Positions 38,203-56,011 of a DNA stretch of 64,000 bases are shown here, piece after piece. Every line of letters starts with the position of its first letter. Positions within the stretch are counted from its first letter, which is position 1. The notes under the pieces are model-generated. The model was not told the DNA's origin. It ran no database searches and worked only from the letters and a program-made list of their open reading frames with translations. This stretch comes from a virus. Position numbers and translations under genes: made by a program. Location of the stretch: IMG/VR virus record IMGVR_UViG_3300021399_000004, positions 64,001 to 128,000 of that record; one strand, 5' to 3'.

Positions 38203-38244
38203 CTAATTGTTCCGAGGGAACGAAATAAAAACCTGGAGGTAAGG

Positions 38245-38634
38245 TTGAGTATGATGTACATGCTGATTGGTTGGACTGACGGTTTCGGTAACGATGCTTA
38301 CGTGAAGAGCGTCTATCAGACGAGGGAAGAGGCACTCGCGGCGGCGATGCTGGATGATGAGATCCCTGACAAAGTTATTCCGTTTGAGTTTGGAGAAGCG
38401 ATTGATTTTGACTATGATGCGGCGGAAGATCTTGTGGAAAGGAAAGAAGAAATCGACTGGTTGCTTGTGGCTATAAACGCGGTGGATGATGATAAGTTTT
38501 ACTCCTTGCACGAAGAATGGTTTAATACTGGCTGCAATGAAGAAGAGGGAGACGGAGATGACGTTGATAAGTTAATTGCAAATCATAAAGATTGGCTGGA
38601 AGAATACTACAAAGAAAAGGGCGGCAAAATTTAA
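38245..38634 (+). CDS. Highly acidic protein, about 128 aa (DNA-mimic-like composition)
   Basis: SD GGAGG. TTG 38245 or ATG 38251. Asp/Glu-rich throughout. GC hairpin after the stop. Confidence 0.8.
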   Translation: MSMMYMLIGWTDGFGNDAYVKSVYQTREEALAAAMLDDEIPDKVIPFEFGEAIDFDYDAAEDLVERKEEIDWLLVAINAVDDDKFYSLHEEWFNTGCNEEEGDGDDVDKLIANHKDWLEEYYKEKGGKI

Positions 38635-38686
38635 GGGAGGCTATGGCCTCCTGGCCGGCCCGCTTCCAAATAAATTTCTCAAACCT

Positions 38687-38715
38687 CTGACAATCTATCT
38701 CACCTATGTTATAAT
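38687..38715 (+). promoter_or_regulatory. SigA-type promoter
   Basis: CTGACA-17-TATAAT. Confidence 0.6.
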
Positions 38716-38764
38716 GAACATGTTGAAAGCAGAAGGACACTGCTCAAACCGGAAAGGAAAGACT

Positions 38765-38959
38765 ATGGAAAAGAACACTAACTCTCGCAACGGCATCGGT
38801 TTTACTGGCCTGCTTACCATTGCTTTCATTGTGTTGAAGCTGTGCGGCGTGATTACTTGGTCTTGGGTATGGGTTCTGTCTCCGATTTGGATTTCTGTTG
38901 GGATTGCTCTGATTGCTACTGGGCTGCTGGTGATTGTCCATCTTATCCGGAAGCATTGA
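38765..38959 (+). CDS. Two-TM membrane protein, 64 aa
   Basis: SD GGAAAGGAAAG. Internal ATG of track ORF 38576..38959. Confidence 0.75.
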   Translation: MEKNTNSRNGIGFTGLLTIAFIVLKLCGVITWSWVWVLSPIWISVGIALIATGLLVIVHLIRKH

Positions 38960-38974
38960 GCATATGAGTATAAT

Positions 38975-38999
38975 AAAAAAGCCGGTCACCGGCTTTTTA
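38975..38999. terminator. Bidirectional terminator
   Basis: AAAAAGCCGGT-CA-CCGGCTTTTT. Confidence 0.8.
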
Positions 39000-39011
39000 T
39001 TTAGGACGCAT

Positions 39012-39031
39012 TTAGATGTTTAAACATCTAA
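39012..39031. repeat. 20-bp palindrome, copy 2/38
   Basis: Arms exact, centre TTAA. Confidence 0.95.
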
Positions 39032-39075
39032 AATCCTTTATAAAAAAAGTTAGGTTTCCCTAACTTTATAGTTTA

Positions 39076-39330
39076 TTATTTATACAAAAGGCACAGGAAG
39101 TAAACATTGAGGACAACGCTGGAGAGGTGCATGAGCACGTCATTGACGTGCCTGTGCTGCGACAAGTCCTTGCATACACCGAATAGCGCAATCGCAAGGC
39201 CGAACCATGAGACTTGAAGGCCGAAGAGCATAATCAGGACTACATTCAGGATAGTGATTCCGCACCGAAGATCATTCCATTCAAAGCGATACGGCATTGA
39301 AATGCCAAACCAGTTCTTTACTCGCTCCAT
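39076..39330 (-). CDS. Membrane protein, 84 aa
   Basis: Track ORF. ATG overlaps the upstream TAA (TAATG). SD GGAGGA. Confidence 0.8.
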   Translation of the reverse strand: MERVKNWFGISMPYRFEWNDLRCGITILNVVLIMLFGLQVSWFGLAIALFGVCKDLSQHRHVNDVLMHLSSVVLNVYFLCLLYK

Positions 39331-39623
39331 TATTCGTTATCCTCCATCGTGTCCTCGTAGCCGTAAACGTCACCCGCCCAACGGATTTCATCTTCTGCAA
39401 AATCCGTAGGGGCATCGGGATCAACGTCATCCGCGGCAAGCCAGTCTTCCCAAGTGGGGAAGAAGGCGTAGAAATCATCGCACGCTTCAATCGGATCTTC
39501 CATGTGGCACAGATTGCACTGGTCGCAGTAGGGGCAATCGCCATAGGCATTAACAGGGCAGTACACGGGGTCGCCGTTGCGGTAGCCGTCAGTTTCGTAG
39601 TGGTAATCCTTCATCGTGAACAT
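39330..39623 (-). CDS. Acidic Cys-rich protein, 97 aa
   Basis: Internal ATG (MFTMKDY) after GGAAAGGA. Confidence 0.75.
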   Translation of the reverse strand: MFTMKDYHYETDGYRNGDPVYCPVNAYGDCPYCDQCNLCHMEDPIEACDDFYAFFPTWEDWLAADDVDPDAPTDFAEDEIRWAGDVYGYEDTMEDNE

Positions 39624-39663
39624 ATCTGTCAATCCTTTCCGTTCCTCTCTCGGGAACAATGCT

Positions 39664-39692
39664 ATTATAGCATGGAGGTTAGTATTTGTCAA
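39664..39692 (-). promoter_or_regulatory. SigA-type promoter
   Basis: TTGACA-17-TATAAT. Confidence 0.7.
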
Positions 39693-39701
39693 GGGATAGA
39701 A

Positions 39702-39721
39702 TTAGATGTTTAAACATCTAA
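39702..39721. repeat. 20-bp palindrome, copy 3/38
   Basis: Arms exact, centre TTAA. Confidence 0.95.
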
Positions 39722-39758
39722 CCTTGTTTAAGAGAAAAGCCGCCGGGGCGGCGGTATA

Positions 39759-40229
39759 TTAGTCTGTGTTTCGGTCATTAAGGGTAAAAGAAATCTCTGT
39801 CCACCCATCAGAACAATTGCCTAATTCTTTGGTGAAGCCTTCAAGTTCAAACTTATCCATGAGGAAACTTCGCATTTCTCCTCCCCACCAAGCACAATTA
39901 ACTTTCCAAAATCTGCGGTCTTTCAGTTTTAGATATTTCTTTGCAAGTTTAATATTCCAACCAAGGCCGTTGTCATAGAAGTAAAAGGTTTTATTTTCGG
40001 CGTCCCATTCAGAGTTACGAGGAATGTAATAGTTTAGAATTTTAGCCGCACGTTCTTCATTCCAATTCTCTTTGCTGTTAAGCCATACATGAATTTTTTT
40101 AAGCATGAGACTGCCAATCCAAAATGGAAACAGAATTACACGAAGAATCTTGTAACTATTCTTGTTCCACCACTTGCGAATCTTGTGTTCTTTCTTGCCC
40201 CGCATCGCCTTGATAACTTCATTTGTCAT
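39759..40229 (-). CDS. Hypothetical protein with N-terminal TM, 156 aa
   Basis: Track ORF. SD AGAAAGGAAG. GC hairpin at the stop. Confidence 0.85.
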   Translation of the reverse strand: MTNEVIKAMRGKKEHKIRKWWNKNSYKILRVILFPFWIGSLMLKKIHVWLNSKENWNEERAAKILNYYIPRNSEWDAENKTFYFYDNGLGWNIKLAKKYLKLKDRRFWKVNCAWWGGEMRSFLMDKFELEGFTKELGNCSDGWTEISFTLNDRNTD

Positions 40230-40264
40230 AGTGGTTACTTCCTTTCTGTCCTTTGGACAGATTT

Positions 40265-40293
40265 ATTATAGTATAGAATAAAGAGAAAGTCAA
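40265..40293 (-). promoter_or_regulatory. SigA-type promoter
   Basis: TTGACT-17-TATAAT. Confidence 0.7.
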
Positions 40294-40302
40294 GTAGGAA
40301 TA

Positions 40303-40322
40303 TTAGATGTTTAAACATCTAA
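40303..40322. repeat. 20-bp palindrome, copy 4/38
   Basis: Arms exact, centre TTAA. Confidence 0.95.
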
Positions 40323-40364
40323 TGGGCTGGCCAGGTGACGGTATGATCGCCACCTAATACATTT

Positions 40365-40640
40365 TTAGTCTGTTTCCTTCTCATTTCGATGATACAATGT
40401 GTTAATAGTTTTACCTTCAGGAAGAGCGGCCAACCTCTTAATCCGCACATATTGCCAACGGTCATGAAGCAAGATAGCAGATCGGTAATCATAGTAAGTA
40501 GTGATAGTGTCTGTTTTCTGTGAATTGTAGACTAAAACACGTTCATCGTTAGCGAGATATTCATACAGTCCGTTTTCATAATCTACACGACAGAAGTCGG
40601 GTTGATGATAGTACACTTCCTTGCGCTTATGACTTTTCAT
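40365..40640 (-). CDS. Hypothetical protein, 91 aa
   Basis: Track ORF. SD AAGAAAGGGG. Confidence 0.85.
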   Translation of the reverse strand: MKSHKRKEVYYHQPDFCRVDYENGLYEYLANDERVLVYNSQKTDTITTYYDYRSAILLHDRWQYVRIKRLAALPEGKTINTLYHRNEKETD

Positions 40641-40680
40641 ACTTAGTATCCCCTTTCTTGTTCGGAGAGTGTCCTTCTCT

Positions 40681-40770
40681 TTACTTGTTTTTGTTATTCA
40701 TCAGTTGAATGATTGAGCAGACAATGATTGCGACTTGACAGATGACGATGATGACGGTTCTGGTGGTCAT
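40681..40770 (-). CDS. Hydrophobic peptide, 29 aa
   Basis: SD AGAAAGGAAC. ATG to TAA. First ORF after promoter 40812..40840. Confidence 0.5.
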   Translation of the reverse strand: MTTRTVIIVICQVAIIVCSIIQLMNNKNK

Positions 40771-40811
40771 AGTGGCGTTCCTTTCTGTTTCTCTCTTTCA
40801 GGAACAACTGT

Positions 40812-40840
40812 ATTATAGCATAGGTTGTGGCGATTGTCAA
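40812..40840 (-). promoter_or_regulatory. SigA-type promoter
   Basis: TTGACA-17-TATAAT. Confidence 0.7.
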
Positions 40841-40849
40841 GAGTTTTTT

Positions 40850-41005
40850 TCAAACTGCGCGCCATTCTCCTGTATTTGCGTCTTTAATAAATTCAACCGC
40901 AGGAATATAAATGTAGTTATCTTCGATGATTTCATATTCGGGGAAAGCATTGGGATTGGTTTCAAGAGTGTTATTGATGAAGGTGATGATTTCTTCGCGC
41001 GTCAT
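40850..41005 (-). CDS. Hypothetical protein, 51 aa
   Basis: Conserved leader plus SD AGAAAGGGG. ATG to TGA. Below the track cutoff. Confidence 0.65.
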   Translation of the reverse strand: MTREEIITFINNTLETNPNAFPEYEIIEDNYIYIPAVEFIKDANTGEWRAV

Positions 41006-41053
41006 TTGGTTCCCCTTTCTGGTTTATGGTGTTTTCCTTCACCTTTCAATGAT

Positions 41054-41082
41054 AGTATATCATAAGATACATTTTTTGTCAA
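41054..41082 (-). promoter_or_regulatory. SigA-type promoter
   Basis: TTGACA-17-TATACT. Confidence 0.7.
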
Positions 41083-41119
41083 GGGGTTTTGAAAATTTTT
41101 TGGCGGGCCGGTCTGTAGG

Positions 41120-41139
41120 TTAGATGTTCAAACATCTAA
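41120..41139. repeat. 20-bp palindrome, copy 5/38
   Basis: Arms exact, centre TCAA. Confidence 0.95.
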
Positions 41140-41187
41140 ATTGGTTCCGGTTAAGCGTGTCTAACTCTTGCATAAAAGAAAAGCCCC

Positions 41188-42198
41188 TTAGTAGGGGCAG
41201 ACGGTGTTTGTGTATTCAGCAAGGCGGTGAAGTTTGTTAATAAGACTTGCGCAATAGTTGCTAATGGTGTCACTTTCCATTTTTGCGTCAAGGTAGGCAG
41301 AAATTGCGTTATAGACCGTTTCGCACTCTTCCATTTTAGGGGTTTTGCGGCGAGTGACAAAATCTACGGTGTCGCCAAGATCACGGAATGGGAAATATTT
41401 GATACCAATTGATACGGCGTGACGCTTTGCAATGCGGGAAAGAATATAAGTTTCAATAATGGCATCGTCCAGGGCTGTGTGACTCTCTATGAAATCATAT
41501 TTGTTACAGAGATATTGATAAGTAGTTTCGGCGCTGGTCTTGAAATAAGTTCCGGAGGCGGTCAGTAGGCCATGTTTGAGGCACTCGGTTTTATAGGTGG
41601 CATTATTCAGAAGATGAGAAGTAGCAAGCCCCCAAAGGTCAAAGAGCGGATAGGTTTCGCCGCGGAAAGTGAAGGCGTCCGGGTTAAAGTCTTTGTCAGA
41701 ATCTTTCTTGTAGGGTTCATTCGCAATCTTCCGGCAGAGATTTTTTTGAATCTGTTCCCACTTCTGATAGTCGGGGCTGTACAGTTTGCGAATATACAAT
41801 TCAGTGAACGGGATGGCCTTCTTAAAGTCAAACATTGCGTTAAAGGCTCCAACAGCGTCAACTTTGTGCAAGTCGTTAATGAAAATTTCCATGACCGTAT
41901 CCCACGGGGCAAGAACGGTTTCTTTATTTTCCAGCATTGCCAGATACCGAGGGCGCTTTTCCGCATAATAGGCGGTATTGAATACGGCGGGAACGGCGAA
42001 CGTTTCGGCAATCAGAAATTGCTTGTTTTCCAGAATATCGCCCTGCCGGTTAGTAATAGTCCAGCCAATATCGTAAATGAGCGGCCTTGCAATAGCGATC
42101 TTCTTCTTCTTTTCGGGATCACCGTCGGCAATTTCAGAGGCGAACGGGAGGGTAGCGGTTTCGGTATCGACAACCATGTACAGACGGCGCTTGCTCAT
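41188..42198 (-). CDS. DEDDh (DnaQ-like) 3'-5' exonuclease, 336 aa
   Basis: Exo motifs VVDTETA, AFNAMFDF and HTALDDAIIE. Paralog of 50141..50902. Confidence 0.85.
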   Translation of the reverse strand: MSKRRLYMVVDTETATLPFASEIADGDPEKKKKIAIARPLIYDIGWTITNRQGDILENKQFLIAETFAVPAVFNTAYYAEKRPRYLAMLENKETVLAPWDTVMEIFINDLHKVDAVGAFNAMFDFKKAIPFTELYIRKLYSPDYQKWEQIQKNLCRKIANEPYKKDSDKDFNPDAFTFRGETYPLFDLWGLATSHLLNNATYKTECLKHGLLTASGTYFKTSAETTYQYLCNKYDFIESHTALDDAIIETYILSRIAKRHAVSIGIKYFPFRDLGDTVDFVTRRKTPKMEECETVYNAISAYLDAKMESDTISNYCASLINKLHRLAEYTNTVCPY

Positions 42199-42249
42199 AC
42201 GGCAGAAGTCCTTTCCGGTTTGAAGTGTTTTCCTTCACTTGATGGGTAC

Positions 42250-42278
42250 AGTATAACATAAGCGGTGATAAAAGTCAA
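42250..42278 (-). promoter_or_regulatory. SigA-type promoter
   Basis: TTGACT-17-TATACT. Confidence 0.7.
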
Positions 42279-42308
42279 TAGGGAAATTTGATGGGCATAG
42301 CCGTATTA

Positions 42309-42328
42309 TTAGATGTTCAAACATCTAA
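42309..42328. repeat. 20-bp palindrome, copy 6/38 (between divergent promoters)
   Basis: Arms exact, centre TCAA. Confidence 0.95.
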
Positions 42329-42357
42329 AAATGTTGAAGGAAAATTAAAAATATGGA

Positions 42358-42385
42358 TTGACTTTTTTATAAAGTCGAGTATAAT
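42358..42385 (+). promoter_or_regulatory. SigA-type promoter
   Basis: TTGACT-16-TATAAT. Confidence 0.65.
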
Positions 42386-42411
42386 ATAATTGTACCAAGA
42401 GAAAGGAGCCA

Positions 42412-42921
42412 ATGAAGATGACTGATTACAAGCAGGAAGCCCGTAAATTTTTGAAAGAATTTTCTCCTGCGTTAGAAAACTATAATGGTTCACTGACGTA
42501 TATGTGGCAGAAAGCCAAAGAATATAATAAAGGTAGAACGAAAATAAATCAAATTGTTTGTAGAAATGGTGCTACTCGGATAGCTCTTATCGGCAAGGAT
42601 TTTGTTGTAAAGATGGATTATGATGCTGATGATGATATAAAAATGTTTGGTGGATGCGGGAAAGAATACGCTTTGTATAGAAAATGTGTTCGTGAAAATT
42701 CGCCTTATTTGCATTGTTTATTGGAAATTGCTAAAATTAAAGTAGGCAATCATTTCTATTACATCATGCCAAAAGCAAACTATTGCGGGCATACTTCCTT
42801 CTTAAATTTCAATTGTGAAGAAAGAAACTGGCTGTATAGTCATGTAAATGATTTACATAATGGAAATATTGGAAAATATAACGGTAAACCTGTGGTTATT
42901 GATTATGCCTGTCAGTTCTGA
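42412..42921 (+). CDS. Hypothetical protein, 169 aa, with kinase-like DLHNGN...VIDYA motif
   Basis: Track ORF. SD GAAAGGAG. Hairpin GCCTGTCAG-TT-CTGACAGGC at the stop. Confidence 0.8.
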   Translation: MKMTDYKQEARKFLKEFSPALENYNGSLTYMWQKAKEYNKGRTKINQIVCRNGATRIALIGKDFVVKMDYDADDDIKMFGGCGKEYALYRKCVRENSPYLHCLLEIAKIKVGNHFYYIMPKANYCGHTSFLNFNCEERNWLYSHVNDLHNGNIGKYNGKPVVIDYACQF

Positions 42922-42944
42922 CAGGCATTTTCATTATTTGTAGA

Positions 42945-42964
42945 TTAGATGTTTGAACATCTAA
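42945..42964. repeat. 20-bp palindrome, copy 7/38
   Basis: Arms exact, centre TTGA. Confidence 0.95.
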
Positions 42965-43007
42965 CCTCTCTGGAAAAAAAGAAAAGCGGCCGAAGCCGCT
43001 TTAAGTG

Positions 43008-43340
43008 TTAGCCCTTCACCGTGTAGGTGTTGGGCTTGCCCTCGGTCTTGACAAGCTCGTCAGCCCACAGGCGGGTAATGGCGTACTGCACATTGCCACG
43101 GGTTACGCCGGTGGGCAGGTCATTCTGGCAAGCCTCGTAAACCTCGCTAACCGTCAGCGACACAGGAGTGGACTTGAACACGTTGAACACAATGTCCTTC
43201 ATAGTCGTATACATGTCGGACTTGGCAGCCTTGACCTCGGCGCCACGGTTCAGCTCCTTGTCAACGGCGGCAAGCAGCTCGGTCTGATCGGGCATGGTAG
43301 ACAGGATGTTGCGGATAGCAGTCAGAGAAGCCTTCGTCAT
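43008..43340 (-). CDS. wHTH-like protein, paralog family member 1 of 3, 110 aa
   Basis: Track ORF, alignable with 46723..47061 and 49632..49976 (LT..E.Y......LP.G.T.G...Y..TR.W.DE). Confidence 0.85.
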   Translation of the reverse strand: MTKASLTAIRNILSTMPDQTELLAAVDKELNRGAEVKAAKSDMYTTMKDIVFNVFKSTPVSLTVSEVYEACQNDLPTGVTRGNVQYAITRLWADELVKTEGKPNTYTVKG

Positions 43341-43408
43341 ATGGATACCCTTTCTGGTTTGTGGGGTTTTCCTTCCCCTGTTTTGTTGTTGTCCCTTGGG
43401 ACACTCTT

Positions 43409-43437
43409 ATTGTACCACACTTTAGTGTGCTTGTCAA
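43409..43437 (-). promoter_or_regulatory. SigA-type promoter
   Basis: TTGACA-17-TACAAT. Confidence 0.65.
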
Positions 43438-43439
43438 GG

Positions 43440-43512
43440 GAGTTTGGAAACTTTTTTTGAGTTTCAACTACGACCTTGCAACGGTGGTGTGGCTTGGAGT
43501 TCCCTCCTGACA
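43440..43512 (-). ncRNA. Candidate short non-coding transcript or long leader from an orphan promoter
   Basis: Promoter 43519..43547 has no ORF before the next promoter. Its 5' end AAATACTGTCAGGAGGGAA is shared with the unit at 47145..47249. Contains hairpin GAAACT-N7-AGTTTC. Confidence 0.3.
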
Positions 43513-50140: not shown

Positions 50141-50902
50141 TTAGCCCTCCGCCGTAGTAAATGAATATGTATCATTCTTTACATACTTTTTAATATATCG
50201 TCCTTTGATAACCTGTACTCCGTCAATTTTAATTGTGAAGGGTTTAATCTGTTGCCGTTTCAAAATCTTTTTTACTTCATAATCATGATTCCATTCTGCG
50301 CCACGTTTGATACATTCAAGCAAAATATTGCTTTCAATTTGTGCATCATACAGGCCCATGTGCTTTTCTATAAAATCATATTTGCTTTGGATATATTGAT
50401 ATACAGATTCAGCGCTGCCGCTATAATTGCCCGTATCTGTAAAGCGCTGATTTACTTCACAAAATTGCTTGTACTCGTCTGTATTTGTGATAAAAGCGCT
50501 TGCATAGCCCCAAATATCATGAATGGCTACCGTATCAAAAGGATTCATTGTTCTGAACCAATCACAATTATAGGTTAAGACTTTATCATCGAAAGTTGAG
50601 TTATAGGCATATGCATCAGTGATATTAAATGCTTTAATATCTCGTCTGATAGCTTGCATGATATAGCCCCACTTGTCCATGATCGCCAGCTTGCTTCTCA
50701 TTAGCGTGATATAGTCGGGGCGCTTGTCTTTATAATAGGCGCTTTCAAAAAGAGGGAGATTGTGCCAGACCTGTTCTACAATGTAATGCGCCTGCTTGAC
50801 CAGCTCATTCGATTCAGTATTGATTATTACATAACCAATATCATAGCAGAAGCATTTTTCGAGGCCGGTTGTCTCCGTGTCAAATACCATGATGAATCCC
50901 AT
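50141..50902 (-). CDS. DEDDh (DnaQ-like) 3'-5' exonuclease, 253 aa
   Basis: Motifs VFDTETT, AYNSTFDD and HMGLYDAQIE. Paralog of 41188..42198. Confidence 0.85.
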   Translation of the reverse strand: MGFIMVFDTETTGLEKCFCYDIGYVIINTESNELVKQAHYIVEQVWHNLPLFESAYYKDKRPDYITLMRSKLAIMDKWGYIMQAIRRDIKAFNITDAYAYNSTFDDKVLTYNCDWFRTMNPFDTVAIHDIWGYASAFITNTDEYKQFCEVNQRFTDTGNYSGSAESVYQYIQSKYDFIEKHMGLYDAQIESNILLECIKRGAEWNHDYEVKKILKRQQIKPFTIKIDGVQVIKGRYIKKYVKNDTYSFTTAEG

Positions 50903-50946
50903 ATTGTGTAGCTCCTTTCAAGTATATGGTTTTGGGGAACGGTAGT

Positions 50947-50975
50947 ATTATAACATGACTAAAGATATGTGTCAA
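50947..50975 (-). promoter_or_regulatory. SigA-type promoter
   Basis: TTGACA-17-TATAAT. Confidence 0.7.
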
Positions 50976-50992
50976 TAGCCTGGAAGATTAAA

Positions 50993-51012
50993 TTAGATGT
51001 TTAAACATCTAA
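50993..51012. repeat. 20-bp palindrome, copy 20/38
   Basis: Arms exact, centre TTAA. Confidence 0.95.
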
Positions 51013-51035
51013 CTCTATGTTAAAGGCTGGGGTGG

Positions 51036-51233
51036 TTAATCCCAGTCTTCGTCGTCCGCGTTCAGTACAACATAACCATTGCAATCCTGCACATCGGTGA
51101 CACGCGGCCACAGCAATTCAAAATCATTGTAGTGCGGGCCATATCCCTCATTCTGCCAAAAGGTATCGGGGATCCGAACAATGCTGTCCTGGGGCAGCTT
51201 GAGCAGGGAAGCAATCAGTTCACGTACAGTCAT
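51036..51233 (-). CDS. Hypothetical protein, 65 aa
   Basis: Track ORF. Confidence 0.8.
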   Translation of the reverse strand: MTVRELIASLLKLPQDSIVRIPDTFWQNEGYGPHYNDFELLWPRVTDVQDCNGYVVLNADDEDWD

Positions 51234-51256
51234 CTTTTTTTACCTCTTTCTTTTTC

Positions 51257-51324
51257 TTTGTCGGGAGGGAGCGTGAGTCTCATCCACACTGTAGGCTTCC
51301 GAGGAATGCGTTTTCCCTCCCGAC
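51257..51324 (-). promoter_or_regulatory. Long 5'-UTR stem-loop (12-bp stem, about 44-nt loop)
   Basis: TGTCGGGAGGGA (51257-51268) pairs with TCCCTCCCGACA (51313-51324), between the -10 and the SD of 51036..51233. Confidence 0.6.
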
Positions 51325-51330
51325 AATGGT

Positions 51331-51359
51331 ATAATACCATATTACGGGAAAATTGTCAA
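51331..51359 (-). promoter_or_regulatory. SigA-type promoter
   Basis: TTGACA-17-TATTAT. Confidence 0.6.
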
Positions 51360-51388
51360 GAGGTTTTTTGAACTCGGAAAAAGGCTGT

Positions 51389-51408
51389 TTAGATGTTCAA
51401 ACATCTAA
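51389..51408. repeat. 20-bp palindrome, copy 21/38
   Basis: Arms exact, centre TCAA. Confidence 0.95.
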
Positions 51409-51449
51409 CCTGGTAAAATGGAATGGGCGGCTTTTCGCCGCCCGGTATC

Positions 51450-51686
51450 TTATCGATAATAATTCTGATTGTAGCGCTCATAAGCGCTCATTTTGCGGTA
51501 TTCATTGTATTCCAGCTCACTAATTTCTTTGCCCTGGATAATGGCGCGGGTGTGCTTAACGCTGGGCATCCGCTTGGCCCTGTCCATAGCTTCCAGCAGG
51601 TTTTCAGCTTTGATGGCGAAGGTGATTTCAGTGCTGTGGCCAATGCCGCAATGCCCCCGGTGGCAAGTAACCTTGTAATACTTCAT
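51450..51686 (-). CDS. Hypothetical protein, 78 aa
   Basis: Track ORF. SD AAAGGAG. Confidence 0.85.
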   Translation of the reverse strand: MKYYKVTCHRGHCGIGHSTEITFAIKAENLLEAMDRAKRMPSVKHTRAIIQGKEISELEYNEYRKMSAYERYNQNYYR

Positions 51687-51732
51687 GGTTTTTTCTCCTT
51701 TCTTTCGGTGGGTTTCCTCTCACCGTGATTAG

Positions 51733-51761
51733 AGTATAACATAATGGAGGATAAAAGTCAA
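51733..51761 (-). promoter_or_regulatory. SigA-type promoter
   Basis: TTGACT-17-TATACT. Confidence 0.7.
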
Positions 51762-51780
51762 TAGTGCATATTGAGTTCAT

Positions 51781-51800
51781 TTAGATGTTTGAACATCTAA
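51781..51800. repeat. 20-bp palindrome, copy 22/38
   Basis: Arms exact, centre TTGA. Confidence 0.95.
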
Positions 51801-51828
51801 CCTAAAGGAAACAAAAAGGGGCGGAGGT

Positions 51829-52134
51829 TTATCCCTCCGCCTCAATCTTTTTGATCTTATTTCGCAATTCATTAATCTGCTGGTTCAACGCTTTAATCTG
51901 TGCTTGCTTGAGTCTTTTTGCCCGTTCCTTTTCCCAAAAATCCCACGTCATAACGATTTTATAATCTACGTCATGCGTCAACACTTTTGCGCGGAACAGC
52001 GTCATCAAAGAACAGGCGTGATTTTCATGCAGAATGTTTTCAGCTTCTTTTAAGTTCATCGTGCCTTTTTCAAGGCGGGGCAGCAGCAGGGCCATGCCGT
52101 AGGCAACAGCGGGGTTATTGTTTTTCTCTACCAT
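51829..52134 (-). CDS. Hypothetical protein with coiled-coil tail, 101 aa
   Basis: Track ORF. Confidence 0.85.
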   Translation of the reverse strand: MVEKNNNPAVAYGMALLLPRLEKGTMNLKEAENILHENHACSLMTLFRAKVLTHDVDYKIVMTWDFWEKERAKRLKQAQIKALNQQINELRNKIKKIEAEG

Positions 52135-52174
52135 CGTTCCAATCTCCTTTTATGTATTTTCTGGGAACGTCTAT

Positions 52175-52203
52175 AATATAGCATAAAGTCATAAGATTGT
52201 CAA
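52175..52203 (-). promoter_or_regulatory. SigA-type promoter
   Basis: TTGACA-17-TATATT. Confidence 0.6.
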
Positions 52204-52220
52204 GACTTTTTTATGGCAGA

Positions 52221-52240
52221 TTAGATGTTCAAACATCTAA
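52221..52240. repeat. 20-bp palindrome, copy 23/38
   Basis: Arms exact, centre TCAA. Confidence 0.95.
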
Positions 52241-52270
52241 CTTGGAGAAGAATAAAAAAAGGGTGGAGGG

Positions 52271-52549
52271 TCACCCCTCCACCTTCTGAATCTCACCGGT
52301 AAAAATGTTGTAACGCTGACCGGTAGTGTACAGCTCTTTCGCCAGCTGATAGGTCAGACCACGTTCCTGCATGAACCACCGAATGTGGTTAATAGTAGTG
52401 CGGCTATACAGCCCGTTGCAATACAGCCACCCGTTAGAATCAATCTCAATTACAGTGGTGGTGTAGCTGACCAGCTTTCCGGAAAAGCCGTCATTGTTCA
52501 CGTACTCACGCGCCTGCGCATACTCGTGACCGTTCAGTTTCTTCATCAT
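52271..52549 (-). CDS. Hypothetical protein, 92 aa
   Basis: Track ORF. Confidence 0.85.
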   Translation of the reverse strand: MMKKLNGHEYAQAREYVNNDGFSGKLVSYTTTVIEIDSNGWLYCNGLYSRTTINHIRWFMQERGLTYQLAKELYTTGQRYNIFTGEIQKVEG

Positions 52550-52597
52550 TGTTGTGATCCTCCATTTTTTTATTCTGTACCTCTTTGGTACGGTTAT

Positions 52598-52626
52598 ATA
52601 TTAGCATATACGGTTAAAAAAGTCAA
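52598..52626 (-). promoter_or_regulatory. SigA-type promoter (weak -10)
   Basis: TTGACT-17-TAATAT. Confidence 0.55.
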
Positions 52627-52645
52627 TAGGATTTTTCGCCTGATT

Positions 52646-52665
52646 TTAGATGTTCAAACATCTAA
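52646..52665. repeat. 20-bp palindrome, copy 24/38
   Basis: Arms exact, centre TCAA. Confidence 0.95.
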
Positions 52666-52706
52666 AAGAGTTTAATAAAGAGTAGGCGCAAAGCCTACTC
52701 TTTTTA

Positions 52707-52871
52707 TTACTTAATGGCGCAATTGGTATGGCTGTAATGCAACCGCCAATTGAGATATTCGCAGCTGCAAGGGTCAAGAATGTCATCATACCCGCACTCT
52801 TCGGCGTCTTCCCACAGTTCGTCATACGTTACCAAGTTGCCCATCTCTTTGTTCATGTAGTAGAATTCCAT
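52707..52871 (-). CDS. Hypothetical protein, 54 aa
   Basis: SD GGAGG. ATG to TAA. Hairpin AGTAGGC-GCAA-GCCTACT after the stop. Below the track cutoff. Confidence 0.7.
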   Translation of the reverse strand: MEFYYMNKEMGNLVTYDELWEDAEECGYDDILDPCSCEYLNWRLHYSHTNCAIK

Positions 52872-52913
52872 TGTAGTGACCTCCATTTTTTATTATCCCC
52901 TCGGGACGATTAT

Positions 52914-52942
52914 AGTTTACCATACATATGATATATTGTCAA
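52914..52942 (-). promoter_or_regulatory. SigA-type promoter (weak -10)
   Basis: TTGACA-17-TAAACT. Confidence 0.5.
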
Positions 52943-52950
52943 GATGGAAT

Positions 52951-52970
52951 TTAGATGTTTGAACATCTAA
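52951..52970. repeat. 20-bp palindrome, copy 25/38
   Basis: Arms exact, centre TTGA. Confidence 0.95.
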
Positions 52971-53061
52971 TAATGTTTTGGGTTTGTGGCGGAGGTATTT
53001 TATACTAAAATGTTTAAGTATATTAAAAATGAAATAGGAGGGAATACCCTCCTATTTCATC

Positions 53062-53364
53062 TTAGCAGTAGGCAAGGCTCATGTTCGCCCACTTGAGAAC
53101 CGAAATCTGATTGTGCTTGCGGCCGATCTCCATCGCCTGCCGCTTAGTCTTGACGCGGAAGCTGTGATCGATGTAGTAAACGCCGTCGCTGTACCAGATC
53201 CCGCAGCTGCCGTTCATCTTCTTTACAGCTTCCGCAGCTTCCGCAGCCGTCTTGCATTCAACCCCGTGATCGGCCACCTGCCAACCCGTCTTGTAGGTGA
53301 TGACCTTGCCGTTCTTCAGGGTGAGACCATCGTTGTTCTTGAGCGCCTTGAGCATTTCCAACAT
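53062..53364 (-). CDS. Hypothetical protein, 100 aa
   Basis: Track ORF. Terminator AAATAGGAGGG-AATA-CCCTCCTATTT. Confidence 0.85.
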   Translation of the reverse strand: MLEMLKALKNNDGLTLKNGKVITYKTGWQVADHGVECKTAAEAAEAVKKMNGSCGIWYSDGVYYIDHSFRVKTKRQAMEIGRKHNQISVLKWANMSLAYC

Positions 53365-53409
53365 TGTTGCATCCTCTTTTCTTTTTATTCTGTCCCTTCG
53401 GACAAGTAT

Positions 53410-53438
53410 ATATTACCATATAGCAAGCAAAAAGTCAA
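53410..53438 (-). promoter_or_regulatory. SigA-type promoter (weak -10)
   Basis: TTGACT-17-TAATAT. Confidence 0.55.
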
Positions 53439-53456
53439 GGGCATTTTTGAGAGGAA

Positions 53457-53476
53457 TTAGATGTTTAAACATCTAA
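53457..53476. repeat. 20-bp palindrome, copy 26/38
   Basis: Arms exact, centre TTAA. Confidence 0.95.
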
Positions 53477-53508
53477 CATAAGGAAGGCCCTAACAGGGCC
53501 GTAGATAA

Positions 53509-53700
53509 TTAACAATTCCACTGGATATTGCCAGGCTCGAAAATCGCTACGATCTCGCCGGTGCCCTCACGCATGACGTCGGTAGCAAGGTTGCACTCAT
53601 GAAACATGCGGAAGGCCATGATCTTAGCGGCCCATTCGCTATTGAACTTGATACCATAGGTGAAGGGCTGCCGGTTGATGTAGTAAGTCACAGTGTACAT
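53509..53700 (-). CDS. Hypothetical protein, 63 aa
   Basis: ATG (MYTVTYY) lies 8 nt after AAGGAGG. The track ORF starts 2 codons earlier at TTG. Confidence 0.8.
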   Translation of the reverse strand: MYTVTYYINRQPFTYGIKFNSEWAAKIMAFRMFHECNLATDVMREGTGEIVAIFEPGNIQWNC

Positions 53701-53731
53701 AATCAATGCCTCCTTTTCTTGGAACGATTAT

Positions 53732-53760
53732 AGTATATCATACTTGTTTTTGTTTGTCAA
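53732..53760 (-). promoter_or_regulatory. SigA-type promoter
   Basis: TTGACA-17-TATACT. Confidence 0.7.
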
Positions 53761-53777
53761 TAGGAAAATAAAAAAGA

Positions 53778-53797
53778 TTAGATGTTGAAACATCTAA
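53778..53797. repeat. 20-bp palindrome, copy 27/38
   Basis: Arms exact, centre TGAA. Confidence 0.95.
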
Positions 53798-53824
53798 CCC
53801 TGGAGAGAAAAAAGGTAAACCGCC

Positions 53825-53980
53825 TTAGCGGTCTACCTCAACAATGACGTATTTCCAAGTCCGGCCCAGTTGCTGCCCACGTTCCACATAATGCTTGCCA
53901 ATTTTCTCAGCTTCTTCGCGGGTAGAGAACGTATCGGCCATGTTGCACGTGTACTTGCCAATGATGTAAAGCTCGAACAT
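53825..53980 (-). CDS. Hypothetical protein, 51 aa (paralog of 54427..54591)
   Basis: SD AAAGGAAGGA. FSTREEAEKIGKHYVERG aligns with FSTNEEAENTGKQYVNRG. Confidence 0.7.
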   Translation of the reverse strand: MFELYIIGKYTCNMADTFSTREEAEKIGKHYVERGQQLGRTWKYVIVEVDR

Positions 53981-54018
53981 GTTGATTCCTTCCTTTCTGT
54001 TCCCTTTGGAACGATTAC

Positions 54019-54047
54019 ATTATAGCATACTTGTGAAGAAAAATCAA
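54019..54047 (-). promoter_or_regulatory. SigA-type promoter
   Basis: TTGATT-17-TATAAT. Confidence 0.6.
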
Positions 54048-54065
54048 GTGGTTTGCACTATTTCA

Positions 54066-54085
54066 TTAGATGTTGAAACATCTAA
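54066..54085. repeat. 20-bp palindrome, copy 28/38
   Basis: Arms exact, centre TGAA. Confidence 0.95.
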
Positions 54086-54110
54086 CCTTGGTGGAGGATG
54101 GGCGGGCCGA

Positions 54111-54272
54111 TTAGCCCGCCATTTCCTTAACCCACGCCGCGGCGTCCTTCCAATTATCAAAGCTAAGCCGTCCAAAATCATAGTTGAATACTACCCATGT
54201 GCTATGCGAATCAAGGTCATCATAGTAATAGCCCATCTTTTCCATCCGTGCAATGATAGTCCGCTTTGCCAT
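54111..54272 (-). CDS. Hypothetical protein, 53 aa
   Basis: SD AAAGGAG. Hairpin GGCGGGC-N6-GCCCGCC spans the stop. Confidence 0.7.
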   Translation of the reverse strand: MAKRTIIARMEKMGYYYDDLDSHSTWVVFNYDFGRLSFDNWKDAAAWVKEMAG

Positions 54273-54310
54273 CGTACATTCTCCTTTCTTTATCCCCTTG
54301 GGACAATATC

Positions 54311-54339
54311 ATTATATAGGATTTTAGTATGTTTGTCAA
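54311..54339 (-). promoter_or_regulatory. SigA-type promoter
   Basis: TTGACA-17-TATAAT. Confidence 0.7.
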
Positions 54340-54378
54340 TAGGCATTGTAAAAAAATTAATAGAAAATAAAATTAAGA

Positions 54379-54398
54379 TTAGATGTTTAAACATCTAA
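54379..54398. repeat. 20-bp palindrome, copy 29/38
   Basis: Arms exact, centre TTAA. Confidence 0.95.
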
Positions 54399-54426
54399 CC
54401 TTCAATTGTTAAAGTGTCTCCCGCGA

Positions 54427-54591
54427 TTAAGCGGGAGCGGAAAGAACGAAGTAATCCCAATCATGGCCCAGCTCGGTGCCCCGGTTAACGTACTGCTTGC
54501 CGGTGTTTTCAGCTTCTTCATTGGTGGAGAACTTACCAATCAAGTAGAAGCTATACTTGCTAACGATGTACAATCTGTAAATGGTGTCCAT
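54427..54591 (-). CDS. Hypothetical protein, 54 aa (paralog of 53825..53980)
   Basis: SD GGAAAGGAAGGA. Hairpin CTCCCGC-N6-GCGGGAG at the stop. Confidence 0.7.
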   Translation of the reverse strand: MDTIYRLYIVSKYSFYLIGKFSTNEEAENTGKQYVNRGTELGHDWDYFVLSAPA

Positions 54592-54629
54592 ATGTTTTCC
54601 TTCCTTTCCGTTCCTCTTGGAACGTCTAT

Positions 54630-54658
54630 ATTATAGCATACTCGCAATTACTTGTCAA
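54630..54658 (-). promoter_or_regulatory. SigA-type promoter
   Basis: TTGACA-17-TATAAT. Confidence 0.7.
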
Positions 54659-54676
54659 CGTGTTTATGAAAATGAA

Positions 54677-54696
54677 TTAGATGTTCAAACATCTAA
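54677..54696. repeat. 20-bp palindrome, copy 30/38
   Basis: Arms exact, centre TCAA. Confidence 0.95.
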
Positions 54697-54707
54697 CTCT
54701 TGGAGGC

Positions 54708-54851
54708 TCACGCCTCCTCTTCTACCCGTTCAAAGTTATCACGGCAGAACGATTCATAGGAATCATACCACTTAGAGAAATATTTATACTGCTCATACAT
54801 TTCTTCTTCCGTAATGTATCTTTCCATTTCCCAATCATACCATTTAGCCAT
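54708..54851 (-). CDS. Hypothetical acidic protein, 47 aa
   Basis: SD AAAGGAGGAAAAG. Hairpin GGAGGC-TCAC-GCCTCC at the stop. Confidence 0.65.
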   Translation of the reverse strand: MAKWYDWEMERYITEEEMYEQYKYFSKWYDSYESFCRDNFERVEEEA

Positions 54852-54893
54852 TTTCTTTTCCTCCTTTTTTGTTCGTTCCTTTGGAACAGTTAT

Positions 54894-54922
54894 ATTATAT
54901 CATGGTAGGATAGTCCTGTCAA
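54894..54922 (-). promoter_or_regulatory. SigA-type promoter
   Basis: TTGACA-17-TATAAT. Confidence 0.7.
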
Positions 54923-54940
54923 CAGAGTGAGAAAAATAAA

Positions 54941-54960
54941 TTAGATGTTCAAACATCTAA
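54941..54960. repeat. 20-bp palindrome, copy 31/38
   Basis: Arms exact, centre TCAA. Confidence 0.95.
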
Positions 54961-54976
54961 CAACGTTGGTGGGCCG

Positions 54977-55102
54977 TTAGGCCCACCGCATCAATTCATC
55001 AAATTCCTCAAAAGTCATGGGGTCGTCCTCATCAGTATTCGCCTGATACTCCCAGAACAGATAGATCTGCTCCGCGTCGGTCAGTTCATCCCAATTAATC
55101 AT
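54977..55102 (-). CDS. Hypothetical acidic protein, 41 aa
   Basis: SD GAAGGAG. Hairpin GGTGGGCC-GTTA-GGCCCACC at the stop. Confidence 0.6.
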   Translation of the reverse strand: MINWDELTDAEQIYLFWEYQANTDEDDPMTFEEFDELMRWA

Positions 55103-55149
55103 TTTTGTTTTCTCCTTCGTTTCTTTATTTTGTCCCTCCGGACAAGTAT

Positions 55150-55178
55150 AGTATACTGTATGTTCAATAAAAAGTCAA
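55150..55178 (-). promoter_or_regulatory. SigA-type promoter
   Basis: TTGACT-17-TATACT. Confidence 0.7.
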
Positions 55179-55196
55179 CATGAATTTTTCAGAGGA

Positions 55197-55216
55197 TTAG
55201 ATGTTTAAACATCTAA
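55197..55216. repeat. 20-bp palindrome, copy 32/38
   Basis: Arms exact, centre TTAA. Confidence 0.95.
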
Positions 55217-55331
55217 CTTTTGAAAAAAACGATGATAAGTTTCTTTGCTATTTTTTTACCGATAAGTCATGCGGAAGAAATAGCAGAAAGTACTGCCTGA
55301 TTTGATAGAAAAGTCATCACATTCAAATCTA

Positions 55332-55499
55332 TTAAATAATTATTCTAGCTTGTCGGTGTCCAGCTGGCGCCCAGCTGGTGTCCAGCTGGCTGGCCCGTAG
55401 GGCGCGAGTTGCGCCGCGGCGAGCCTCAAAAAATTTATAGGTAACTATGATAAACAGATCTTCTTGATTCTCTTTTTTAGGTGGTAGTTGGAGAGACAT
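55332..55499 (-). CDS. Questionable ORF, 55 aa, containing the CAGCTG repeat block
   Basis: SD GGAGGGG and ATG to TAA. The GC-rich repeat inside it may be a DNA or RNA element rather than coding sequence. Confidence 0.3.
   Translation of the reverse strand: MSLQLPPKKENQEDLFIIVTYKFFEARRGATRALRASQLDTSWAPAGHRQARIII
55361..55388. repeat. Three CAGCTG cores phased at exactly 11 bp (GTCCAGCTGG-like units)
   Basis: Cores at 55361-66, 55372-77 and 55383-88. Confidence 0.85.
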
Positions 55500-55517
55500 T
55501 GCCCCTCCAATGATGAT

Positions 55518-55546
55518 AGTATACTACATTACACGTTCATTGTCAA
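55518..55546 (-). promoter_or_regulatory. SigA-type promoter
   Basis: TTGACA-17-TATACT. Confidence 0.7.
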
Positions 55547-55564
55547 TCATGATAGCGTGGATAA

Positions 55565-55584
55565 TTAGATGTTCAAACATCTAA
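55565..55584. repeat. 20-bp palindrome, copy 33/38
   Basis: Arms exact, centre TCAA. Confidence 0.95.
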
Positions 55585-55602
55585 CTACCATGGGCATCCG
55601 GA

Positions 55603-55622
55603 CATCTAACTACTGTTAGATG
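55603..55622. repeat. Everted half-site pair CATCTAAC-TACT-GTTAGATG
   Basis: The same half-sites as the 20-bp palindrome, in swapped order. Confidence 0.8.
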
Positions 55623-55653
55623 CGAAAAAAGGGGGGGCTTGCGCCCCTCCTTT

Positions 55654-55965
55654 TTACTTCATTGTTTTGAACCAGTAGTTTTCATTGGTGTTCCAGTAGT
55701 GCAGGCGGCACAGTCGGCTGTTCCAGCTCTTAACAATAGCGTCCGGCGGGCAATCCGTCAAGTGGCGGCTCAGCCCTTCACCGCAGGCAATCTCAACCTT
55801 GAGATAGAACCCTTCGGCGGTCTTACCCTCCCGCGTGATCTTTACCATGGGAGTGGCGCCGCGCCCGCCCTTCAAGTAGTAGTGGCGCGCGGTCTTTTCC
55901 AGCAGGCGAACCATGGTCAGCAGGTTGAAGTAGTCGGGAGCGAAGACGGCGATCAGAATCATCAT
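55654..55965 (-). CDS. Hypothetical protein, 103 aa (paralog of 59744..60055)
   Basis: SD GGAGGTG before the internal ATG. The C-terminus HYWNTNENYWFKT matches HAWNTNDDYWYET. Confidence 0.8.
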   Translation of the reverse strand: MMILIAVFAPDYFNLLTMVRLLEKTARHYYLKGGRGATPMVKITREGKTAEGFYLKVEIACGEGLSRHLTDCPPDAIVKSWNSRLCRLHYWNTNENYWFKTMK

Positions 55966-56011
55966 GATGGACACCTCCAAATTTTTTTCTGTTCCCCCTT
56001 GGAACAATTGT

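Follow-up and report, generated by a model that had tools for sequence, protein, structure and literature searches.

A short promoter-anchored stem-loop at the predicted 5' end of small early-cassette transcripts in an uncultured phage, with a possible role in mRNA protection

The cassette array described here lies at 38136..57240 of a 64,000-nucleotide stretch of viral DNA (IMG/VR record IMGVR_UViG_3300021399_000004, positions 64,001 to 128,000), which is referred to below as the window. About half of the cassettes have a short stem-loop whose first base is the predicted transcription start (the +1 hairpin). The hairpin is real and occurs far more often than by chance, its position relative to the promoter is fixed, its two arms are matched to each other, and it recurs across a family of related phages. 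It is moderately probable that the hairpin is a 5'-terminal stem-loop which, jointly with the strong Shine-Dalgarno sequence (SD) next to it, shields early mRNAs from decay that depends on the 5' end.

The array consists of about 40 very small gene cassettes, located on the minus strand except for three units. On the transcribed strand, the order within a unit is palindrome, spacer, promoter, leader, SD, one or two short open reading frames (ORFs) and an intrinsic terminator. The perfect 20-nt palindrome TTAGATGTTNAAACATCTAA is present in 38 copies in the array, 9-20 nt upstream of nearly every -35 box. The cassette promoters have the near-consensus form TTGACA-17-(TG)nTATAAT, with a match at 12/12 positions in 12 units, and a simple scan detected 98 promoter-like sites compared with 49 +/- 8 in shuffled sequences. 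The leaders are 25-65 nt long with a strong SD of the AGAAAGGAGG type, and the terminators are G+C-rich and intrinsic (51 terminator-like sites by scan versus 17 +/- 4 in shuffles). The early transcripts would come from host RNA polymerase with the primary sigma factor acting at the near-consensus promoters. Six sigma-A-like promoters outside the array (25975, 29716, 33101, 35709, 36334 and 61077) are without a +1 hairpin.

A total of 41 array promoters were curated, and a hairpin was scored when a stem of at least 4 bp, with at most one G.U pair, had its first base at the 7th nucleotide after the -10 hexamer. With a loop of at most 12 nt, the hairpin was found at 19/41 promoters, compared with 3.2 +/- 1.7 in dinucleotide-preserving shuffles of the leaders (maximum, 9 in 1000). 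When loops of up to 25 nt were allowed, the number was 23/41, versus 6.4 +/- 2.3 in the shuffles. The stems are 4-6 bp long. An earlier note on this DNA had placed such a hairpin in almost every cassette. This does not hold for the +1 type, but it does if any 5'-proximal hairpin is counted: in the minimum free energy (MFE) folds, the first helix lies within 8 nt of +1 in 35/41 leaders, compared with 21.3 +/- 3.3 in shuffles (maximum, 31), a number that includes a second type of leader hairpin with the loop AAGGAAAA (class B, described below). MFE folds that open with a helix at nucleotide 1 were obtained for 18/41 leaders versus 6.4 +/- 2.3. A covariance model (CM) was seeded with five equal-length hairpins from the window, an earlier MAFFT alignment having misaligned the 3' arms of hairpins with unequal loops. 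In the window, the model at E < 0.1 matched at array promoters only. The hairpins are the following.

38209-38221, plus strand: 5'-terminal hairpin GTTCC-GAG-GGAAC, starting at the 7th nucleotide after the -10 box TATACT (38197-38202) of promoter 38174; CM score 40.9 bits
39641-39657, minus strand: 5'-terminal hairpin GTTCC-CGAGAGA-GGAAC; found by CM match and fold
40248-40258, minus strand: 5'-terminal hairpin GTCC-AAA-GGAC, extendable to CTGTCC/GGACAG
40777-40805, minus strand: long-loop variant GTTCCT-N17-AGGAAC; the 3' arm overlaps an SD-like AGAAAGGAAC, 6 nt before the ATG
43391-43402, minus strand: 5'-terminal hairpin GTCC-CAAG-GGAC, followed in the same leader by the class B hairpin GGGG-AAGGAAAA-CCCC
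44441-44455, minus strand: 5'-terminal hairpin GTAC-GAAGGAG-GTAC, with the SD inside the loop, 6 nt before the ATG; z-score -4.2
47777-47789, minus strand: 5'-terminal hairpin GTTCC-AAG-GGAAC; best CM match, 42.5 bits
50025-50042, minus strand: 5'-terminal hairpin GTTCCC-AAGAGA-GGGGAC with one U.G pair, followed by the class B hairpin GAGG-AAGGAAAA-CCTC
52136-52168, minus strand: long-loop variant GTTCC-N23-GGAAC, SD enclosed by the loop; 3' arm ending 1 nt short of the ATG
52577-52591, minus strand: 5'-terminal hairpin GTACC-AAAGA-GGTAC, middle pair A-U; z-score -3.05
52895-52907, minus strand: 5'-terminal hairpin GTCCC-GAG-GGGAT, terminal pair G.U; CM match
53392-53403, minus strand: 5'-terminal hairpin GTCC-GAAG-GGAC; z-score -3.35
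53999-54012, minus strand: 5'-terminal hairpin GTTCC-AAAG-GGAAC; CM match
54292-54304, minus strand: 5'-terminal hairpin GTCCC-AAG-GGGAT, terminal pair G.U; CM match
54610-54623, minus strand: 5'-terminal hairpin GTTCC-AAGA-GGAAC; CM match; z-score -3.13
54875-54887, minus strand: 5'-terminal hairpin GTTCC-AAA-GGAAC; CM match
55132-55143, minus strand: 5'-terminal hairpin GTCC-GGAG-GGAC; z-score -3.31
55991-56005, minus strand: 5'-terminal hairpin GTTCC-AAGGG-GGAAC; CM match

All of the hairpins that the earlier note had listed were present within a few bases of where it placed them. One of them, the unit near 54290, had been misread as GTCCC-AA-GGGAC; the actual sequence is GTCCC-AAG-GGGAT, which closes with a G.U pair. 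Twenty leaders were folded over the stretch between the predicted +1 and the AUG; in the 18 with a clear hairpin, the MFE and the centroid structures both contained the terminal hairpin. The total MFE of these 18 leaders ranged from -3.8 to -15.3 kcal/mol and was about -4 to -7 kcal/mol where the hairpin was the sole helix. The SD was usually single-stranded in the MFE folds, with an A-rich spacer between it and the hairpin. The loops range from 3 to 23 nt and comprise more than 30 different sequences, which are purine-rich (AAG, AAAG, GAAG, GGAG), and the distance from the hairpin to the ATG ranges from 1 to 29 nt. The hairpin is thus fixed relative to the promoter while its loop and its distance to the ATG vary, indicating that it is tied to the promoter or the 5' end and not to the start codon. 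A scan of the window with the Rfam covariance models at the gathering score matched no family.

Relatives were retrieved through a cassette protein and the relaxed pattern TAGATGT-N3-5-ACATCTA-N5-25-TTGAC, which yielded more than 120 loci on IMG/VR phage contigs. The contigs with several copies of the pattern are 24-190 kb long and have the same cassette architecture as the window, with 17-19-nt variants of the palindrome (TAGATGT-N3-5-ACATCTA) in the same place. The exact 20-nt palindrome gave only five single, chance-like matches in IMG/VR, a megablast search with 8 kb of the array gave no match among GenBank phages, and the helicase-like protein used as a query for related loci found nothing. 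The 635 pattern matches were reduced to 461 unique palindrome-promoter-leader units from the relatives and the window, which were extracted regardless of any hairpin. In these units, base 6 after the -10 box is a pyrimidine in 97% and base 7 is a purine in 95%. A pyrimidine followed by a purine is the usual -1/+1 dinucleotide of a start site, here at the canonical distance from the -10 box. The first stem base coincides with base 7 in 48/49 of the family hairpins of the form GYNCC-loop-GGNRY. In the 461-unit set, stems of at least 5 bp peaked sharply at offsets 5-7 and were at background elsewhere in the leader, and a perfect 5-bp stem at +1 was found in 7.4% of 473 family leaders compared with 0.6% at control offsets. 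The +1 hairpin is commoner in the window than in most relatives, where the polypurine starts GTAAA and ATCAA dominate.

The two arms of the hairpin are matched across the family. GGAAC was found downstream of 34/61 GTTCC starts compared with 31/400 other starts (p = 2e-17), and GGAC was found downstream of 16/28 GTCC starts compared with 44/433 others (p = 9e-9). In the 2x2 table of GTTCC or GTCC starts by GGAAC or GGAC arms, the counts were 34 and 10 in the first row and 4 and 16 in the second (p = 2e-5). The covariance model gave 162 matches in the family, from which an alignment of 109 distinct rows, fitted to the structure, was obtained. In this alignment, 94.2% of the cells pair, and there are 32 double-change cells compared with 10.1 +/- 2.3 in shuffled controls, a level reached in 0/500 shuffles. 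The covariation score was 0.251 versus 0.164 +/- 0.008 (0/500), and the true register beat every slid register. Stem pair 3 is U-A in 67 rows, C-G in 26, U.G in 9 and G-C in 1, and stem pair 1 is G-C in 76, G.U in 13 and A-U in 3. The rare variants ATCCC/GGGAT and ACTCC/GGAGT are fully compensated, and orthologous cassettes in relatives sometimes have a different version of the stem (GTCC/GGAC versus GTCCC/GGGAT). The proposal in the earlier note that compensatory changes reflect selection on structure is supported by the matched arms in the 461 units and by the shuffled and slid controls, but the covariation is narrow and lies mainly in pairs 3 and 1. These results support the view that selection has kept the pairing and not the primary sequence, as far as can be judged from related copies in an alignment fitted to the structure.

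The predicted transcription start is the G (rarely A) located 7 nt after the -10 hexamer, which is the first base of the stem, so that the triphosphorylated 5' end would have no unpaired nucleotides. If the leader folds in the same way in vivo, a fully paired 5' end would deny access to an RppH-type pyrophosphohydrolase and to the 5'-exonuclease RNase J1 or RNase Y, presumably the nucleases concerned in a host of the Bacillota, or to RNase E elsewhere. With decay blocked, the short early mRNAs would last longer, and a ribosome on the adjacent strong SD would cover the remaining short leader. In Bacillus subtilis, long stretches of downstream RNA are stabilised by a 5'-terminal or 5'-proximal hairpin or ribosome-binding site (PMC3997798, section 7). 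RppH acts only where two or more nucleotides are unpaired at the 5' end, with a preference for G as the second nucleotide (PMC3997798, section 7); the predicted transcripts of the hairpin cassettes have U at position 2 and zero unpaired 5' nucleotides. The decay pathway that depends on the 5' end and on RppH and RNase J1-type enzymes is general in Bacillota (PMC3997798), and 5'-terminal stem-loops stabilise the ompA, papA, aprE and T4 gene 32 mRNAs, as far as these are described in the papers citing them (PMC3997798, PMC7509114, PMC8948821). The anchoring of the hairpin at base 7 favours a role linked to the 5' end, such as that of an mRNA 5' stabiliser. Of the two roles suggested in the earlier note, stabiliser and translational gating, it is the former that agrees with this anchoring, while gating as a general role is not in line with an SD that is unpaired in most MFE folds.

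Several observations weigh against 5'-end protection. The stems are short and only moderately stable, and individual z-scores are often weak (+0.13 to -4.2). The +1 is a predicted position, and transcription may start 1-2 nt upstream or downstream of it. Several hairpins are only 1-2 nt from the SD, and a stem-loop too near the SD lowered the stability of a model mRNA (Sharp and Bechhofer 2005, as cited in PMC7509114). The covariation counts come from an alignment fitted to the structure and from statistics without phylogeny correction, and they are concentrated in two of the five pairs (1 and 3), pairs 4 and 5 being invariant C-G. Since the leaders are related to one another as paralogues or orthologues, compensatory changes will have arisen independently only a few times, perhaps 5-10. 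On the fitted alignment there were 32 G.U pairs against 8 A.C mismatches, whereas an unbiased symmetric scan gave only 9 against 4 (p = 0.27); this evidence leans towards pairing in the sense-strand RNA rather than in the DNA but is not decisive. In the family, 27/61 GTTCC leaders have no GGAAC partner, so that the 5' arm could also serve a separate purpose. The hairpin is not essential, since some orthologous cassettes no longer have it or carry a polypurine or AAGGAAAA-type leader instead. Such exchanges fit interchangeable modules of equivalent role.

Alternatively, the hairpin or its 3' arm could modulate access to the SD, either by sequestering it or by keeping the pyrimidine-rich 5' end off the purine-rich SD. 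A minority of units (40777-40805, 44441-44455 and 52136-52168) have an SD that is enclosed by the loop or that touches or overlaps the 3' arm, and the proximity that the earlier note had reported for the first and last of these is real. There is also weak UUCC/GGAG pairing at the 53760 promoter, and the 5' arm GUUCC/GUCCC is complementary to SDs of the GGAA/GGAG type, so an unpaired arm could compete for the SD. Translational control is nevertheless unlikely, because the hairpin is fixed to the -10 box while the ATG moves from 1 to 29 nt away, and because the SD is single-stranded in most MFE folds beyond an A-rich spacer. A DNA operator with a degenerate palindrome, which had been offered as the alternative to an RNA structure, is disfavoured and very unlikely. 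In such an operator, a dimeric repressor from the phage or the host would bind the inverted repeat centred near +7 and switch off the early promoters. The half-sites do not have a fixed spacing but lie 3 to 23 nt apart in a single genome, and GTTCC, GTCC, GTCCC and GTACC half-sites coexist in one phage, each matched to its own complement and not mixed, whereas a single dimeric protein would not need half-sites matched at each site. An inverted repeat over +1 does occupy the classic position of a repressor site, with the consensus half-sites GTTCC and GGAAC; in the unbiased scan, the excess of G.U over A.C does not reach significance; and the pairing potential often reaches 1-2 nt upstream of the predicted +1. 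This upstream extension, however, is mostly T opposite A or G without covariation, and C at -1 is paired in 2 cases and unpaired in 3. The invariant 20-nt palindrome upstream of the -35 box is a far better candidate for an operator (or a recombination module) than the +1 hairpin because its sequence and spacing are fixed.

The hairpin could also be a recognition tag, bound by an RNA-binding protein or nuclease of the phage or host for timed shut-off, processing or antitermination, in the manner of lambda N-boxB or T4 RegA/RegB. A uniform small hairpin with purine-rich loops on many co-regulated early transcripts would suit such a tag, and control of read-through is conceivable in an array where every cassette ends in a terminator. 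What makes it improbable is that neither the length (3-23 nt) nor the sequence (more than 30 versions) of the loop is conserved, with no Rfam match; that the leader alignments have no boxA-like or other conserved companion motif, whereas a lambda-type nut site combines a hairpin of conserved purine pentaloop with a linear boxA close by; and that each cassette has its own promoter and orthologous genes exchange the hairpin for unrelated leader types. An effect close to the promoter, in which the G-T-N-C-C initial transcribed sequence and the early RNA hairpin tune the choice of start, promoter escape, or pausing and backtracking, is consistent with the 5' arm being kept at +1 to +5 even in the 27/61 family leaders without a 3' arm, and near-perfect consensus promoters (12/12 in 12 units) belong to a class prone to slow escape. 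However, the covariation of the 3' arm with the 5' arm would be left unexplained, a hairpin spanning +1 to +13 forms only once the RNA exits the channel, that is, after escape, and in most family leaders the same type of promoter is followed by a GTAAA or ATCAA start; this effect is also judged unlikely. Finally, the opposite-strand hairpin together with the T/A-rich complement of the -10 box could stop transcription that enters the cassettes backwards, and the consensus terminator scan did flag nine hairpins on the plus strand, including those at 40245, 43390, 52575, 53391, 54609, 54875 and 55990. The stems, however, have just 5-7 pairs with 3-4 G-C, what looks like a T tract comes from the complement of TATAAT and of the A-rich discriminator, which is interrupted and is not a U run, plus-strand promoters are almost absent from the array, and in the one plus-strand cassette that has the hairpin (38209-38221), the hairpin is in the sense orientation after its own promoter. 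An antisense terminator is highly improbable and was rejected for lack of a real U tract.

Class B leaders contain a stem of at least 4 bp, the conserved loop AAGGAAAA and the return stem, followed by AAACCAGAAAGG and the ATG. They account for 77/502 family leaders, in 24 stem combinations and with full pairing in 68/77 leaders, and they covary far more richly than the +1 hairpin does. The element usually starts 4 nt after the predicted +1, as in the following example.

46168-46189, minus strand: class B element AGGTG-AAGGAAAA-CACCT, then AAACCAGAAAGG; starts 3-4 nt after the predicted +1

In the window, class B leaders follow the promoters at 38687, 41082, 42278, 43437, 44080, 45022, 46223, 46642, 47142, 48290, 49359 and 50077 and cover many of the cassettes without a +1 hairpin. 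The two leader classes are clustered: the +1 hairpin dominates 52.1-56.0 kb, being present at 10/12 promoters in 52203-56040, and class B dominates 41-50 kb, with the AAGGAAAA hairpin at 11/17 promoters in 41082-50077. The clustering points to local duplication or homogenisation, or else to a division of the early genes into sub-classes. We propose that the cassettes use at least three interchangeable leader modules, namely, the +1 hairpin, the stem-AAGGAAAA-stem element with AAACCAGAAAGG, and very short polypurine leaders.

Two longer stems were also observed near the start of minus-strand leaders. At 51250-51325, an 11-bp stem (GTCGGGAGGGA...TCCCTCCCGAC) starts at +1 and encloses about 50 nt, and at 55498-55520, the 10-bp hairpin TTGGAGGGGC-AAT-GTCTCTCCAA starts at +2.

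Among known systems, the classical 5'-terminal stem-loop stabilisers appear functionally closest to the +1 hairpin. As described in the citing papers (PMC3997798, PMC7509114), the Escherichia coli stabilisers ompA hp1 and papA (Emory, Bouvet and Belasco 1992) are, as is predicted for the phage hairpin, short stem-loops at the very 5' end with few or no unpaired nucleotides, in which structure matters over sequence and which are separate from the SD. They differ in that they counter RNase E and RppH in a Gram-negative host and are features of single genes, whereas the phage hairpin is a single type that recurs at about 20 cassettes within one genome and in a family of phages, probably in a Gram-positive host, and its stabilising effect is inferred. 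The 5' stem-loop of the B. subtilis aprE leader and those engineered onto delta-ermC mRNA (Hambraeus 2002; Sharp and Bechhofer 2003/2005), in the account given by PMC3997798 and PMC7509114, share with it a short leader that combines a 5' hairpin with a strong ribosome-binding site, a Bacillota-type context, and an inferred protection from RppH/RNase J1 decay. The phage hairpin has no sequence relationship to them and has shorter stems (4-6 bp), and in several units its SD spacing of 1-2 nt is of the kind reported there as unfavourable in delta-ermC. The T4 gene 32 leader hairpin (Gorski 1985, as cited in PMC8948821) is also a 5' hairpin that confers stability on a phage mRNA, but according to that account it has an extra-stable loop of the CUUCGG type and belongs to a processed transcript of one gene; the phage hairpin has variable purine-rich loops and lies at the predicted primary 5' end of many early transcripts.

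The STAB-SD of cryIIIA and the polypurine stabiliser of phage SP82 (Agaisse and Lereclus 1996; Hue et al. 1995) are 5'-proximal stabilisers of Gram-positive or phage mRNAs as well, and in the summary of PMC3997798 they act through the binding of 16S rRNA or the 30S subunit to an unpaired SD-like sequence. Such a sequence would lie near the 5' end, take no part in initiation and bind the 3' end of 16S rRNA. In the +1 hairpin, by contrast, both the MFE and the centroid folds have the purine arm GGAAC/GGGAC in a helix. The AAGGAAAA loop of class B, which is a different element, does fit STAB-SD in its sequence, and the AAGGAAAA and polypurine leaders resemble STAB-SD and SP82 in sequence. The PeSL cassettes of T4-like phages (PMC2839356, PMC4122927) are similar as arrays of small early genes with a conserved composite terminator/promoter motif and modules apparently shuffled between relatives. 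In those Gram-negative myoviruses, the stem-loop is upstream of the promoter in the position of a terminator (PMC2839356, PMC4122927), whereas the phage hairpin is downstream of the promoter at +1, with terminators and a separate 20-nt palindrome upstream and no sequence similarity. The likeness to PeSL thus appears to be architectural only. Promoters, repeats and hairpins are not mentioned in the paper on phAss-1-type TAG-recoded phages (PMC10607447).

Other features of the array were also recorded. At 43409-43547 and 47114-47284 there are tandem promoters, the upstream one linked to a palindrome and having a leader that begins TGTCAGGAGGGAA and the second one without a palindrome. A noncoding RNA of about 110-140 nt from the upstream promoter runs into the second promoter. 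The second promoters precede paralogous genes for proteins of 110-112 aa (43008-43340 and 46723-47061), of which a third paralogue is located at 49632-50081, and the same arrangement is found in relatives, there with leaders that begin GTTCCAAGGGAGAG. The ORFs at 41188-42198 and 50141-50902, both on the minus strand, encode paralogous early proteins of 336 and 253 aa, which are both assigned to phrog_20187 (unknown function) and start with a motif of the FDTETTG / VDTETAT type that by eye resembles DEDD 3'-5' exonucleases.

The region 56050-58500 has a G+C content of about 21% and contains palindrome-plus-consensus-promoter units at 56392, 56719, 56955 and 57211 without a downstream ORF or SD. 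It also contains isolated half-palindromes (ACATCTAAC repeated) and, from about 58118, a microsatellite of the TATATGTATA type. This may be where the array ends; alternatively, the region could hold an origin or terminus, or genes for several small RNAs. Short direct repeats rich in CCAGCT(T/G) are located at or near both ends of the protein-coding part of the array, with CCAGCTTATCCAGCTT present twice near 38000 (38000-38060) and GTCCAGCTGG three times near 55360 (55350-55400).

With TAG read through, the window contains 13 frames of at least 300 codons, compared with 3 under the standard code, including a frame of 2110 codons at 13151-19480. The TAG-dependent long frames are located at 1-24400, 36367-37788 and 60090-63335, and the phage is therefore TAG-recoded in its late/structural genes; the cassette array itself uses the standard code. 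A tRNA scan of the window detected no tRNA gene and no suppressor tRNA. The window encodes an endolysin and a sigma factor, and the distant relatives of its small-terminase-like protein are only in phages of Bacillota. A comparison of the endolysin with bacterial genomes was uninformative about the host, giving just PG-binding-domain matches in unrelated metagenome-assembled genomes. An identical cassette protein with the same neighbouring genes is present on a contig of 129144 bp from the sheep-rumen metagenomes of Shi et al. 2014 (ENA ERZ28612961 scaffold_147; samples SHIW14-1, SAMN02144230/31; also SRR873602). The project behind this metagenome reportedly produced metatranscriptomes as well. 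The host is probably a Gram-positive (Bacillota) rumen species, since the relatives of the terminase-like protein, the endolysin domains, the extended -10 boxes and the AGAAAGGAGG-type SDs all fit a Gram-positive host and the identical protein points to the rumen.

None of the papers searched describes so small a +1 hairpin repeated at about 20 genes with promoters of their own in a single phage and recurring in an uncultured phage family. The proposed mechanism is a textbook one, and the conceptual advance is therefore modest. It is also possible, though rather unlikely, that the hairpin is a tag read by a phage-encoded factor, which marks a subset of early transcripts (e.g., the 52-56 kb block) against host mRNAs and the subset with AAGGAAAA leaders; there would then be sub-classes of early genes with different lifetimes, or an exemption from phage-induced shut-off of host mRNA. 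The several hundred promoter-anchored leaders allow three strategies of 5'-end protection to be compared, namely, the terminal hairpin, the hairpin with an SD-like loop, and the polypurine leader. If 5'-end protection is the role of the +1 hairpin, an uncultured family of rumen phages (about 24-190 kb, at least one of them TAG-recoded) would provide dozens of independently promoted early genes with a 5' cap hairpin of 11-17 nt. This would amount to a natural, repeatedly validated design rule by which short mRNAs are stabilised in Gram-positive hosts, and synthetic biology would gain a compact part from it.

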